A stretch of 4,591 nucleotides of DNA, from IMG/VR virus record IMGVR_UViG_2579778535_000001, positions 1-4,591 of that record. The stretch is one strand, 5' to 3'. Under the pieces are notes generated by a model. That model saw nothing but the letters and a program-made list of their open reading frames with translations. It was not told the DNA's origin and ran no database searches. Position numbers and translations under genes: made by a program. The stretch comes from a virus (Duplodnaviria > Heunggongvirae > Uroviricota > Caudoviricetes). Below are positions 82-4,591 of the stretch, one piece after another. Each line of letters starts with the position of its first letter. Position 1 is the stretch's first letter.

Positions 82-262
82 TGCCATTCAATCTGTCCTC
101 GCGCTCTTTGCGCTTGTAGTACCAGTTGATGCCAAATGTGCCGACAGTACAAAGAATACCAATGATGACAGCCCAGTCATTCAGGGAGAGAATGCCACCC
201 ATCGCAGTCAGTCCTCCGAAGCTGTAACTGAACCATTCTCTGATTTTGTCCATACGGTACAT
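59..262 (-). CDS. Phage holin, class II / pinholin-like (67 aa), with possible dual start Met1/Met4
   Basis: The 67-aa ORF starts MYRMDKI, has two Gly-rich hydrophobic segments (FSYSFGGLTAMGGILSL and AVIIGILCTVGTFGINWYY) and a highly charged C-terminal tail (KRKEREDR...). It lies downstream of Q, PR' and tR' in the same orientation and directly upstream of a SAR endolysin start. Purine-rich SD-like sequence (GAAGGGG) lies upstream of the ATG. Confidence 0.8.
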   Translation of the reverse strand: MYRMDKIREWFSYSFGGLTAMGGILSLNDWAVIIGILCTVGTFGINWYYKRKEREDRLNGNVTGTTK

Positions 263-268
263 GCTCTA

Positions 269-284
269 CCCCTTCATTGAGGGG
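269..284 (-). promoter_or_regulatory. Small hairpin overlapping the holin ribosome-binding region (sdi-like translational control element)
   Basis: Minus-strand RNA CCCCU-CAAUGA-AGGGG (5-bp stem, 6-nt loop) lies 7-22 nt upstream of the holin ATG and sequesters the SD-like purines. Position is analogous to the lambda S sdi structure. Confidence 0.4.
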
Positions 285-506
285 ATTTGCTCTATTTAAT
301 TAGGAATAAGGTCGATTACTGATAGAACAAATCCAGGCTACTGTGTTTAGTAATCAGATTTGTTCGTGACCGATATGCACGGGCAAAACGGCATGAGGTT
401 GTTAGCGCAACCTCTTGCCACCCGCTTTCACGAAGGTCATGTGTAGAAGGCCGCAGCGTAACTATCAACGATGAATTCATGATAGCCAGTGGCTACGGCT
501 CAGTTA

Positions 507-582
507 TGGTGCTGGTTAACGGACTTGAACCGCTACCCATTCGCTTACAAGGCGACTGCTCTACCATTGGAGCTAAACCAGC
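507..582 (-). tRNA. tRNA-Thr (anticodon UGU), 76 nt with encoded CCA
   Basis: Manual cloverleaf on the minus strand: acceptor GCTGGTT/AACCAGC (7 bp), D stem GCTC/GAGC, anticodon loop CTTGTAA (TGT), T stem AGCGG/CCGTT with T loop TTCAAGT, 3' terminal ACCA. Anticodon stem has one G-A mismatch at its top. Confidence 0.8.
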
Positions 583-587
583 ATATT

Positions 588-662
588 TGGCGGGACAGCG
601 TGGACTCGAACCACGATAAGAAGGTTAACAGCCTTCCGTAATTACCTTTATACGACTGACCC
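588..662 (-). tRNA. tRNA-Asn (anticodon GUU), 75 nt with encoded CCA; acceptor stem has a U4-U69 mismatch
   Basis: Manual cloverleaf on the minus strand: acceptor GGGTCAG/CTGTCCC (6 of 7 pairs), anticodon stem GAAGG/CCTTC, anticodon loop CTGTTAA (GTT), T stem CGTGG/CCACG with T loop TTCGAGT, discriminator G then CCA. Anticodon and T loops match E. coli tRNA-Asn as recalled. D stem is only 3 bp. Confidence 0.7.
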
Positions 663-666
663 AAAT

Positions 667-723
667 AAAAAATCCCGAAACCGTTGTGCAGGCTCTAACT
701 ATTACCTGCGAACTGTTTCGGGA
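667..723 (-). terminator. Rho-independent terminator (tR'-like) ending the short late leader transcript
   Basis: On the minus strand a 9-bp GC-containing stem (UCCCGAAAC paired with GUUUCGGGA, inner secondary pairing GCAGG/CCUGC) is followed directly by UUUUUUAUUU. It lies about 190 nt downstream of the predicted PR' start, matching the lambda 6S RNA length. Confidence 0.8.
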
Positions 724-859
724 TTGCATTTTGCAGACCTCTCAGCCTGCGATGGTTGGAGTTCCAGACGATACGTCGAAGTGACCAACTAGGCGGAATC
801 GGTAGTAAGCGCCGCCTCTTTTTATCTCACTACCACAACGAGCGAATTAACCCATCGTT
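667..859 (-). ncRNA. 6S-like late leader transcript (PR' to tR'), including the qut pause region
   Basis: Interval between the predicted PR' start (about 859) and the terminator is non-coding, about 193 nt, and contains the AACGAT -10-like pause element at 859..854. Boundaries inferred, not measured. Confidence 0.5.
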
Positions 860-865
860 GGGTCA

Positions 866-894
866 AATTTACCCAACTTTATTCAAAAAGTCAA
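866..894 (-). promoter_or_regulatory. Late promoter PR' with embedded Q-utilisation (qut) site
   Basis: Minus strand TTGACT (894..889), 17-nt spacer, TAAATT (871..866), located 43 nt downstream of the Q stop codon. Followed by the AACGAT pause-inducing element. Closely resembles lambda PR' as recalled. Confidence 0.7.
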
Positions 895-936
895 TATCAT
901 GCCGTTAATATGTTGCCATCCGTGGCAATCATGCTG

Positions 937-1560
937 CTAACGTGTGACCGCATTCAAAATGTTGTCTGCGATTGACTCTTCTTTGTGGCATTGCACCACC
1001 AGAGCGTCATACAGCGGCTTAACAGTGCGTGACCAGGTGGGTTGGGTAAGGTTTGGGATTAGCATCGTCACAGCGCGATATGCTGCGCTTGCTGGCATCC
1101 TTGAATAGCCGACGCCTTTGCATCTTCCGCACTCTTTCTCGACAACTCTCCCCCACAGCTCTGTTTTGGCTATATCAACCGCACGACCTGTACCGTGGCA
1201 ATCTCTGCATCTTGCCCCCGGCGTCGCGGCACTACGGCAATAATCCGCATAAGCGAATGTTGCGAGCACTTGCAGTACCTTTGCCTTAGTATTTCCTTCA
1301 AGCTTTGCAACGCCACGGTATTTCCCCGATACCTTGTGTGCAAATTGCATCAGATAGTTGATAGCCTTTTGTTTGTCGTTCTGGCTGAGTTCATGCTTAC
1401 CGCAGAATGCAGCCATTCCGAATCCGGCTTGTGATTGCGCCATCCCCATAGCAGCCATCACATCAGTACCGGAAAGAGAGTCAGAAGCCGTAGCCCGTGG
1501 TGAGTCGCTCATCATCGGGCTTTTTGGCGAATGAAATTTAGCTACGCTTTCGAGTCTCAT
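937..1560 (-). CDS. Q: Late gene antiterminator Q, lambda type (207 aa)
   Basis: 207-aa ORF beginning MRLESVAKFHSPKSPMMSD with the zinc-binding CRDCHGTG ... CGRCKG motif; near-identical to lambda Q as recalled. Start ATG overlaps the ninH stop (ATGA). Confidence 0.95.
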   Translation of the reverse strand: MRLESVAKFHSPKSPMMSDSPRATASDSLSGTDVMAAMGMAQSQAGFGMAAFCGKHELSQNDKQKAINYLMQFAHKVSGKYRGVAKLEGNTKAKVLQVLATFAYADYCRSAATPGARCRDCHGTGRAVDIAKTELWGRVVEKECGRCKGVGYSRMPASAAYRAVTMLIPNLTQPTWSRTVKPLYDALVVQCHKEESIADNILNAVTR

Positions 1561-1745
1561 CGTCTTCCCTTTGTGCCTGGCGTGACCATCAGGACGCCGT
1601 TAACTATTACGTGACGCTCGCCTTTGCTGTCTCGGTCGTACTTGAGCACTGTTCCTCTTGCGCAGGAAAGCATCCTCGCCACTTCGGTCTGATTGCCTCG
1701 TGTCTGGATAAGAAGCTCTGGTATCGTTTGAATTGTGGCGTTCAT
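1557..1745 (-). CDS. ninH: NinH-like small protein (62 aa)
   Basis: 62 aa containing NQTEVAR...RGTV.KY...IVN.VLMV, conserved with lambda NinH as recalled. Sits immediately upstream of Q as in lambda; start overlaps the rusA stop (ATGA). Confidence 0.8.
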   Translation of the reverse strand: MNATIQTIPELLIQTRGNQTEVARMLSCARGTVLKYDRDSKGERHVIVNGVLMVTPGTKGRR

Positions 1746-2104
1746 GCGTTCTCCAGTTCGGTGATTTTTATTCCAAGCCTTCCGCCTGGTACTTTCACGC
1801 CACGAATTACGCGGATGTCATCGAATTGCTCGTCGTCTTCCGCAAATCCGGCGTGGATAAGGGAGTCGAGTAAACCTTTCAGGATGTTGTCGAGGTCGCG
1901 GCGGCGGGAGTCTGGAACGTCTGCGATGACTTTGATGCGGAGTCGTGATTTGGTGAAAATGTCTAACTTAAGTTGGCGGATTATTTGCTGTACATCTTTT
2001 CGGTATTTCTGGCCTTTATCGCTGATGTAGTATTGGCTTCCCCGTCTTCGCCAGTAGGTATTCAGCGACGGTGGGTACGGAAGTGTGAATCTGTATTCTG
2101 CCAT
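1742..2104 (-). CDS. rusA: RusA-family Holliday junction resolvase (120 aa)
   Basis: 120 aa with LPYPPSLNTYW, RRRDLDN and GGRLGIKITE motifs characteristic of RusA endonucleases, including the acidic residues of the RusA catalytic motif. Position equivalent to rusA in DLP12-like prophages. Confidence 0.9.
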   Translation of the reverse strand: MAEYRFTLPYPPSLNTYWRRRGSQYYISDKGQKYRKDVQQIIRQLKLDIFTKSRLRIKVIADVPDSRRRDLDNILKGLLDSLIHAGFAEDDEQFDDIRVIRGVKVPGGRLGIKITELENA

Positions 2105-2629
2105 TTATCCTCTCCCATGATTATGGTGATACCCCAATCGTGATTCCGCCAATTTTCTGGCATTAACGGCTAGAGATATGTCATCGTATAATCCAAGAAA
2201 TATCTTTTTATTATCACTGTTTATATATGCTCCCCACTTTTTATTCTTCTTATAGTAGGCAACACCCATTACTCCAGAGCGATTATTAATAGGCTTTTTT
2301 CTGTTCCTTGAGTTCTGTTTATCATCTACAACGCGCAAATTGCATATTCTGTTATCGCTTTTAATTCCATTTATGTGGTCAATTTCCCCATCAGGTTCGC
2401 TTCCATAAAAAGATATCCATGCGATTCTATGAGCTCGACAAACTTTTTTATTTACAGATATACGAACGTATCCCTTTTCATCTATAGAACCAGCAATCTT
2501 ACCGGCATATGTTGAATTCCAGCACTCTCTTACACTTTCTCTTCTTTTGTATATAAACAAACCTGTTTCGCTATTATATTCATACAATTCATTGATTTCT
2601 TTTTGTGTTGGATATCTTTTACCGTTCAT
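2105..2629 (-). CDS. HNH homing-endonuclease-like protein with C-terminal AP2-type DNA-binding domain (174 aa)
   Basis: Contains GYVRISVNKK...RAHRIAW...EIDHINGIKSDNRICNLRVV...QNSRNRK (HNH_3-type motif) followed by GVMGVAYYKKNKKWGAYIN...IFLGLYDD (AP2-like). Gene is markedly AT-rich by eye compared with its neighbours. Stop TAA is immediately followed by the rusA ATG; start overlaps the ybcO stop (ATGA). Confidence 0.9.
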   Translation of the reverse strand: MNGKRYPTQKEINELYEYNSETGLFIYKRRESVRECWNSTYAGKIAGSIDEKGYVRISVNKKVCRAHRIAWISFYGSEPDGEIDHINGIKSDNRICNLRVVDDKQNSRNRKKPINNRSGVMGVAYYKKNKKWGAYINSDNKKIFLGLYDDISLAVNARKLAESRLGYHHNHGRG

Positions 2630-2916
2630 GACTTAATCTTCCCCTCCTTCAGCAGTATCGCCTGCGTCCTGATCACGCCTTCGAGGTGGTAAAGTCTGGC
2701 GTCTTTGTTGTCGAGATTATGGGTGCGTCGGTCGATTTCATCGTGACACGCGCTACAAGCCCATGCGCCGATCAGGTCGTCAGGCTTCATTCCCGTTCCG
2801 CAAATTCCAGCCATCCGGTAATGTGCCAGAACTGTAGTTTCAGGGTTGCCATTGCATACGCCGTAAATACGTACCTGGCATTCTCTTCCGCGCGCTTCTT
2901 TGCGTAGGTTAGCCAT
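2626..2916 (-). CDS. ybcO: YbcO-like DUF1364 protein (96 aa), Cys-rich putative metal-binding protein
   Basis: MANLRKEARGRECQVRI..CNGNPET.VLAH.R..G.CGTG.KP.DL....ACSACHDEIDRRTH closely matches DLP12 YbcO as recalled. Good SD (GAGGGAAGG) upstream of the ATG. Confidence 0.85.
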   Translation of the reverse strand: MANLRKEARGRECQVRIYGVCNGNPETTVLAHYRMAGICGTGMKPDDLIGAWACSACHDEIDRRTHNLDNKDARLYHLEGVIRTQAILLKEGKIKS

Positions 2917-3121
2917 TTACCTTCCCTCGCAATTGAAGAATTGACTGAAGGTCTTTTTTAATAAATATGCGAGTGCGAATTGAGCAGTAGTTTTCCTTCA
3001 TTCTGGCGTAGTAATAGTCCTTTCTTTGCTTAAGTTTGTTGGCATCCGCTGTCATCCAGTCTTTTACAGCAAACTTAATTAGCCAGCGGTGGCAGAGATA
3101 CCATTTCAGGTAATCACTCAT
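2909..3121 (-). CDS. Hypothetical small basic protein (70 aa), AT-rich moron-like ORF of unknown function
   Basis: ORF with a strong SD (GAGGAAGAAG) upstream of its ATG. Start overlaps the ninF stop and its stop overlaps the ybcO start, so it is embedded in the translationally coupled operon. Trp/Lys/Tyr-rich; I recognise no family. Confidence 0.55.
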   Translation of the reverse strand: MSDYLKWYLCHRWLIKFAVKDWMTADANKLKQRKDYYYARMKENYCSIRTRIFIKKDLQSILQLRGKVNG

Positions 3122-3284
3122 CGTCTTCTTCCTCGTACATTGAGCTATTCGGATCGCTCATCAGTTCTGCGCAGCAATCGGAGCACACGTGAACTTCCAG
3201 CACATGCAGCTTCTGACCGCAGTTAGCGCACGTTAAAGCCCGCTCGACACTTTCTTGTTCGTAACTTCGATTTGGGTCAATCAC
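3114..3284 (-). CDS. ninF: NinF-like protein (56 aa) with CxxC...CC zinc-ribbon-like motif; probable GTG start
   Basis: C-terminal part of the 220-aa track ORF. Sequence [51 protein letters not shown] matches lambda NinF as recalled. GTG at 3284..3282 overlaps the ninE stop (GTGA) and has GAGGAAAA upstream. An in-frame ATG at 3308 is an alternative start but lacks an SD. Confidence 0.75.
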   Translation of the reverse strand: MIDPNRSYEQESVERALTCANCGQKLHVLEVHVCSDCCAELMSDPNSSMYEEEDDE

Positions 3285-3457
3285 CTTGTTTTCCTCATGC
3301 GGTTCCATTTGGCCTGTAACAGCCAGTAGACATAATCGAATGTCTTTACCTGGCTTTCTGTGGGGATTGGTTTCTTGCGGGATTTGGTGCGTTTGGTAGG
3401 AGTAAAAATCAGGTTGTCTAACGCTATTTGAGTAATACTTCGTCGCTGTCTCGCCAT
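3281..3457 (-). CDS. ninE: NinE-like protein (58 aa)
   Basis: Hand translation gives [58 protein letters not shown], resembling lambda NinE (MRRQRRSIT... basic C-terminus) as recalled. GGAGG SD 4 nt upstream of the ATG. Not in the ORF track because it is under 60 aa. Confidence 0.75.
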
Positions 3458-3479
3458 ACGTCCTCCGTTTCCTGCGGTA

Positions 3480-3701
3480 GTGGTAAAACTCCTGTTGGTG
3501 TTCTTTCACACCGGAGACACCATCGATTCCAGTAAGGCTGTCCTGGTCGAAAGCGATCGTCTTCCTTTCACCAGCGCGGAACGTCAGCGTCTGAAAGAGC
3601 TGGAACGTGAAAATCGTGAACTGCGCCGCAGTAACGATATCCTTCGCCAGGCTTCCGCTTATTTTGCGAAGGCGGAGTTCGACCGCCTCTGGAAAAAATG
3701 A
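3480..3701 (+). pseudogene. Remnant of IS3-family transposase orfA (5'-truncated); only the C-terminal leucine-zipper part is IS-derived
   Basis: C-terminal roughly 40 aa ([41 protein letters not shown]) match the C-terminus of IS629-like OrfA as recalled. The N-terminal roughly 30 aa have no HTH character and are encoded by phage-side sequence. Full-length orfA (about 108 aa) would have to start near 3375, inside ninE. Confidence 0.7.
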
Positions 3702-4591
3702 TGCCACTGCTGGATAAGCTGCGTGAGCAGTACGGGGTCGGACCGGTATGCAGCGAACTGCATATTGCCCCGTCAACGTATTACCATTGTCAGCAACAGC
3801 GACATCATCCGGATAAACGCAGTGCCCGTGCGCAGCACGACGACTGGCTGAAGAGAGAGATACAGCGCGTATACGATGAAAATCATCAGGTGTACGGTGT
3901 GCGTAAAGTCTGGCGTCAGTTGTTACGGGAAGGAATCAGGGTGGCCAGATGTACAGTGGCACGTCTCATGGCGGTTATGGGACTTGCCGGTGTTCTCCGG
4001 GGTAAAAAGGTCCGTACGACCATCAGCCGGAAAGCCGTTGCCGCAGGCGACCGCGTAAACCGTCAGTTCGTGGCAGAACGACCTGACCAGCTGTGGGTGG
4101 CTGATTTTACTTACGTCAGCACATGGCAGGGCTTCGTCTATGTGGCGTTTATCATTGATGTGTTTGCCGGATACATCGTGGGGTGGCGGGTCTCATCGTC
4201 TATGGAAACGACATTCGTGCTGGATGCGCTGGAGCAGGCGTTGTGGGCCCGTCGTCCGTCTGGCACCATCCATCACAGCGATAAAGGCTCTCAGTATGTG
4301 TCACTGGCCTATACGGAGCGACTAAAAGAAGCCGGATTACTGGCATCAACAGGGAGTACAGGCGACTCGTATGACAACGCGATGGCTGAGAGCATCAATG
4401 GTCTTTACAAAGCGGAGGTAATACACCGTAAGAGCTGGAAAAACCGTGCAGAAGTGGAACTGGCCACACTAACGTGGGTGGACTGGTATAACAATCGACG
4501 ATTGCTGGGAAGGCTGGGCCATACTCCTCCGGCAGAAGCAGAAAAAGCTTATTATGCTTCCATCGGAAACGATGATCTGGCAGCCTGAGTT
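3570..4591 (+). mobile_element. IS3-family insertion sequence (IS629-like), left end deleted; right end beyond the window
   Basis: orfA remnant plus intact orfB. No left inverted repeat or orfA 5' region is present. IS-like sequence begins about 3570-3580, directly next to phage ninE-upstream sequence. Window ends 3 nt after the orfB stop, so the right inverted repeat is not visible. Confidence 0.85.
3698..4588 (+). CDS. IS3-family transposase OrfB (DDE integrase-fold catalytic subunit, 296 aa), IS629/IS1203-like
   Basis: 296 aa with the DDE triad context WVADFTYV (D), HHSDKGSQY (D), [18 protein letters not shown] (E). ATG overlaps the orfA stop in the -1 frame, the standard IS3 arrangement. 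Strongly resembles IS629 OrfB as recalled. Confidence 0.95.

Follow-up and report, generated by a model that had tools for sequence, protein, structure and literature searches.

A partial IS1203/IS629 element fused to a truncated ninD gene in a lambdoid prophage: probable scar of an illegitimate rearrangement

Gene content of the contig

The window (the whole stretch of DNA that was analyzed, 4,591 nt) coincided with an entire contig, AYQQ01000126.1, of the draft assembly GCA_000503395.1. Its positions 1 to ~3569 belonged to a lambdoid prophage and covered the late-regulatory and nin region, in which all genes lay on the minus strand, and the rest was a partial insertion sequence (IS) on the plus strand. 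The features were as follows.

59-262, minus: holin gene
507-582, minus: tRNA-Thr(TGT)
588-662, minus: tRNA-Asn(GTT)
937-1560, minus: Q antiterminator gene (Pfam Antiterm Q)
1557-1745, minus: ninH (Pfam NinH)
1742-2104, minus: rusA (Pfam RusA)
2105-2629, minus: HNH endonuclease gene (Pfam HNH_3)
2626-2916, minus: ybcO/DUF1364 (Pfam YbcO)
2909-3121, minus: hypothetical gene, 70 aa
3114-3284, minus: ninF (Pfam NinF)
3281-3457, minus: ninE, intact, 58 aa (Pfam PF05322 NinE, E=3.2e-19, residues 1-56/58); also called in the source contig
3424-3569, minus: ninD remnant, a 5'-truncated pseudogene, from homology to annotated ninD alleles
3480-3701, plus: chimeric open reading frame (ORF), 73 aa, GTG start; residues 1-30 antisense to ninD, residues 31-73 identical to OrfA 66-108
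3568-3569: joint, 2 nt (TC) common to the phage parent and the IS parent
3568-4591, plus: IS1203/IS629 (IS3 family) remnant, equal to IS nt 248-1271 of 1310
3570-3701, plus: orfA 3' remnant, codons 66-108 and stop; same protein sequence as the C-terminal end of OrfA (108 aa) in E. coli GDSC2BY4G
3656-3772, plus: ALIL pseudoknot, intact (Rfam RF01497, 121.5 bits against a gathering score of 50, E=3e-32, full model 1-117)
3698-4588, plus: orfB, intact, 296 aa, the catalytic part of a DDE transposase (Pfam rve E=9.3e-28, HTH_21 E=4e-18, rve_3 E=1e-11)

The gene order ninD-ninE-ninF-...-rusA-ninH-Q was collinear on one strand, and the annotated relatives had the same order. A search of the complete E. 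coli genomes for a close ancestor of the phage part returned only mosaic relatives, with at most 82% coverage at ~97% identity; thus, no ancestral structure upstream of the nin genes could be rebuilt.

Both tRNA genes sat between Q and the holin gene, and the window contained no toxin genes. In Stx phages, tRNA genes followed by stx occupy the position equivalent to this Q-holin interval. The HNH_3 gene was free-standing and AT-rich, with a GC content of 0.33-0.36 compared with ~0.5 in its flanks, and it lay exactly between ybcO/DUF1364 and rusA. These two genes directly abut in E. coli GDSC2BY4G, so the HNH_3 gene looks like a presence/absence insertion of the homing-endonuclease type.

The contig ended on the left at or near the holin gene, and both of its ends were in mobile or repeated DNA, where short-read assemblies typically break. 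Its right end was 39 nt short of the right end of the IS, so that the right inverted repeat (IRR) and the right flank lay beyond the window.

The reference IS was delimited in E. coli GDSC2BY4G (NZ_CP136025.1) at 4724-6033. It was 1,310 bp long, with inverted repeats TGAACCGCCCCGG... and a 3-bp duplication GTA. IS1203/IS629, a common element in E. coli, presumably belongs to the IS51 group of the IS3 family, following ISfinder. The original prediction of an IS3-family element on the plus strand, without its left inverted repeat (IRL) and most of orfA, was borne out, since the match to the reference began at 3568 with IS nt 248/1310. IS nt 1-247 were absent from the remnant, and with them the IRL, the leader and the first 64 codons of OrfA. 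Extrapolated to its full length, the element would begin at 3321 and its orfA at 3375; both positions fall inside ninE, as had also been anticipated for orfA. The loss of orfA had been put at about two thirds; the measured value was close, at 64 of 108 codons (59%).

The retained part of orfA encoded the leucine-zipper/coiled-coil part of the protein, and the N-terminal helix-turn-helix was lost. An A-run was found at the orfA/orfB overlap (3693-3698), at which the ALIL pseudoknot stimulates -1 programmed frameshifting; this pseudoknot was also annotated in full-length IS copies. Full-length IS1203/IS629 and the window copy therefore shared the orfA/orfB overlap, the ALIL pseudoknot and an OrfB with the rve domain, and differed in nt 1-247, which the window copy did not have. 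Because the remnant possessed neither an IRL nor the DNA-binding domain of OrfA, it would make no functional OrfAB from its own start and would not be mobilised by the usual two-ended reaction. On the established biology of the IS3 family, we infer that it is immobile.

All 1024 of 1024 nt of the remnant were identical to the active-looking, full-length IS1203 copies on pCREC-544_1 and ETEC B7A pEB2, a match far greater than chance would give. Compared with the chromosomal copies in E. coli GDSC2BY4G and in L005, one of three comparator loci described below, there was one mismatch (3578, G vs T; 99.9% identity). This absence of sequence decay suggests that the rearrangement was recent. It could also mean that reads from other IS copies were merged into a consensus over the IS part of the contig.

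The G at 3578 was silent in OrfA. It was also present in the two full-length plasmid copies on pCREC-544_1 and ETEC B7A pEB2, and in pCoo, and no instance in a full-length IS context was found in IMG/VR. This base hints that the remnant derives from a plasmid-type IS allele. The same G, 10 nt from the joint, was also considered as a scar of repair synthesis, and this was rejected because full-length plasmid copies matching at 1024/1024 nt carry it as well.

The joint between ninD and the insertion sequence

The stretch between ninE and the IS was a remnant of ninD. It was 146 nt long, overlapped ninE by 34 nt and consisted of 48 C-terminal codons and the stop codon, which represented ~76% of the gene. 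Roughly 10-15 codons at the 5' end of the gene, including the start codon, were missing. The translated remnant matched NinD, and an in-frame stop was directly upstream. The original prediction had listed ninD among the genes lost on this side, which proved incorrect.

The position of the joint was also revised. It had been placed beside ninE (~3458-3480), and alignment to ninD alleles and IS copies moved the breakpoint ~110 nt rightward, to 3568/3569. Homology to ninD was 95.3% with E. coli 22KM0354 and 98.5% with strain 2A, and both matches ended at 3569. A megablast of positions 3400-3620 against 5,426 complete E. coli genomes likewise showed unbroken ninE-ninD homology up to 3569 (query 1-170). 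Aligned nucleotide by nucleotide against the two ninD alleles and five IS copies, the window had its last phage base at 3569 and its first IS base at 3568. Across the joint, the phage alleles continued from ...CTTCCTTTC into GCTCTCC, and the IS read ...GGTGGGC before continuing into TCACCAGCGC. The missing 5' end of ninD reads ...GCTCTCCACATCGATAAC.... The breakpoint was thus within or at the edges of the TC at 3568-3569, corresponding to IS nt 247/248-249/250. Left of 3568 there was no IS similarity and no IRL (5'-TGAACCGCCCCGG...), and the sequence found there was ninD.

According to our own calculation, at least two shared bases are expected at ~16% of random joints. The 2-nt overlap alone was therefore not significant and is no proof of a microhomology-driven mechanism. 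The joint was clean, with no filler and no low-complexity sequence. A promoter/terminator scan returned one promoter-like and one terminator-like site around it, both at the number expected by chance.

The plus-strand ORF at 3480-3701 ran across the joint. It had been taken for a chimeric frame and not a real gene, and the analysis agreed with this: no Pfam domain was matched, and its product formed a singleton cluster, from one contig, among ~15 billion proteins. Inspection of the sequence upstream of the GTG at 3480 revealed no purine-rich Shine-Dalgarno sequence. We infer that this frame is not expressed.

The joint itself had no match by megablast in 5,426 complete E. coli genomes, 50,697 phage records and 72,556 plasmids. 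Exact-pattern scans of the GTDB species representatives, IMG/VR and the JGI metagenomes, with the SNP position masked and unmasked, also returned none, and normal IS sequence used as a positive control for the pattern scan returned 88 IMG/VR loci. The joint was thus seen in one draft contig only. Its absence elsewhere is expected for a private rearrangement, yet it leaves the joint unconfirmed.

Related insertions and the origin of the joint

An intact IS1203 was also found in ninD of E. coli GDSC2BY4G (NZ_CP136025.1), in the same orientation and 99.9% identical to the window copy. That insertion was simple and intact, was flanked by the 3-bp duplication GTA and was 33 bp away, at a position equivalent to ~3536 of the window. 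Its insertion site was uninterrupted in the window, which indicated that the two events were independent.

Three further loci (L004-L006) came from STEC prophages of closed E. coli genomes (2011C-4251, O111:H8 strain 8E, and 90-3040). The order in L004 was ninE, a truncated methyltransferase gene, an intact IS and an integrase gene; that in L005 was a truncated ninE, an intact IS1203 and xis/int; and that in L006 was a methyltransferase gene, an intact IS3-family element, IS2 and a truncated integrase gene. The IRL was confirmed by sequence in L004 and L005, and the intactness of the element in L006 was taken from its annotation (a full-length transposase with programmed frameshift). These loci resembled the window in that the same IS family occurred in the same orientation to the nin genes, at the ninE/ninD/methyltransferase position. 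Early genes were missing from them, and the IS was adjoined by integrase or xis (in L006 by IS2 and then the truncated integrase). However, their elements were full-length with a terminus at the joint, whereas the joint in the window was internal to the IS. Together, these insertions suggest that the ninD/ninE/methyltransferase region is a recurrent target of IS629/IS1203 in lambdoid prophages.

The copy in pCoo (NC_007635.1), which carried the same IS allele, matched the window as far as a position equivalent to ~4116. About 700 nt further downstream, the annotation places ltrA, which encodes a group II intron reverse transcriptase/maturase. The pCoo IS may have been interrupted near the equivalent of 4116 and may be another example of the decay of IS1203/IS629.

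For the window, we consider it probable (about 0.65) that the joint is a real, strain-specific rearrangement scar, left by an illegitimate event that joined IS1203 to the middle of ninD. Both endpoints were internal, one at IS nt 247/248 and the other in mid-ninD, and they had 2 nt in common, which is the pattern of illegitimate recombination. Short overlaps of 2 nt are typical of this process.

Under this explanation, a full-length IS1203/IS629 would once have been located on the pR-proximal side of ninE in the lambdoid prophage, or beyond, oriented so that its transposase genes and the nin genes were on opposite strands. Subsequently, a non-homologous event would have joined IS nt 248 to mid-ninD across the two shared bases (TC). 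The simplest form of this event would be a deletion, in which IS nt 1-247 (with the indigenous promoter), the first 10-15 codons of ninD and anything between them would have been lost. A deletion appears the likelier form compared with an inversion or a translocation, and the right flank of the IS was outside the window. If the ancestral IS was only tens of bases upstream, ~250-300 bp could have been lost, and the early region could possibly still lie beyond the IS; alternatively, its ancestral position may have been distant or not in the prophage at all. The original prediction also had ninC, ninB and the replication and immunity genes missing on this side and the prophage probably defective; both claims reach further than the sequence, which stops inside the IS. 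Replication slippage and microhomology-mediated end joining are candidate processes. More speculatively, the transposase and IEE might have set off the event by acting at the IS end that is now lost, with resection as the next step.

The second explanation is that the joint is an artefact of assembly or sequencing, in which the end of a prophage contig was joined to collapsed IS reads by a chimeric read or an over-greedy extension. The window was a whole short draft contig with both ends in repeated mobile DNA, the joint and the chimeric protein were singletons in every collection searched, and the IS part was identical to multicopy full-length elements, so that it is possibly a consensus of the reads of other copies. 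However, graph and overlap assemblers misjoin at shared repeats that are at least as long as the k-mer or the overlap, and the 2 nt common to the two parents were too short for such a misjoin. In addition, the joint was clean and the contig continued 1,024 nt past it, and truncated IS copies and IS-associated scars are common in this prophage region of real closed genomes. An artefact is therefore unlikely in our judgment.

Excision of IS629 provides a further context. The available portions of two sources describe IS629-associated deletions from a few nt to >40 kb, and report that IEE promotes microhomology joining, for which microhomologies of 2-6 nt were proposed (PMC9943667; bioRxiv 10.1101/2023.06.07.543989). 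The IEE-associated excisions and flanking deletions in these portions concern the same IS as the window, and the reported products lose the whole IS, either precisely or with flanking DNA. In contrast, the window product keeps 81% of the IS, and such a product is not described there. The joint might still be the footprint of an abortive event initiated by the transposase and IEE at the left end of the IS; we regard this as unlikely. A break or a copy-out strand switch would have been followed by resection into the IS and then by microhomology joining. If so, the locus would be a natural example of 'self-immobilisation', in which most of the IS is kept and its mobility is destroyed, a product class likewise not described in those portions of the IEE texts.

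The original prediction interpreted the locus as the signature of an IS-adjacent deletion. In such a deletion, the neighbouring early region of the phage would have been removed by transposase acting at one end of the IS or by homologous recombination of two IS copies. Such structures do exist in other E. coli (L004, L005 and L006). However, transposase-mediated adjacent deletion and IS-IS recombination both leave the IS terminus intact at the joint. The IS in the window lacked its first 247 nt, no IRL sequence (5'-TGAACCGCCCCGG...) was present at the joint and both endpoints were internal, and the comparators kept the full IS. Since no IS end was at the joint, the label does not fit mechanistically. 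A classical IS-adjacent deletion could at most have been a first step that was followed by a second, unrelated deletion, and we consider it very unlikely.

The least plausible explanation, which we judge highly improbable, is that a pre-truncated 'mini-IS' of 1,063 bp inserted into ninD by means of its IRR and an IRL-like pseudo-end near nt 248, in which case no DNA was deleted and the remainder of ninD, with the early genes of the phage, would lie past the right end of the IS: ninD is a documented IS1203 target (E. coli GDSC2BY4G, 33 bp away, same orientation, 3-bp duplication) and the right flank was outside the window, but the joint matched the IRL at 10-11/20 positions, compared with top chance scores of 11-12/20 elsewhere inside the IS, no canonical terminal 5'-TG was found at the joint, and no other copy with the same left boundary was met among the sequences searched.

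Annotation of the rearranged region

With the illegitimate rearrangement as the preferred reading, a partial IS1203 fused to a truncated ninD is an ordinary scar, and it matters little beyond annotation. It adds one more example of the clustering of IS629/IS1203 activity at ninD/ninE of lambdoid prophages. The ORF at 3480-3701 should be annotated as no gene, ninD as a 5'-truncated pseudogene, and the IS as a partial, immobile IS1203 remnant. At a minimum, the nin-Q operon has been separated from the start of ninD; it may also be cut off from pR, which could affect the inducibility of the prophage.

An additional ORF of 220 aa (3114-3776, minus) lay antisense to the IS remnant and extended across the joint into ninD/ninE and ninF. 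This frame is a mechanical artefact spanning the joint; the real genes that it overlaps are in other frames, and it should be left out of the annotation.
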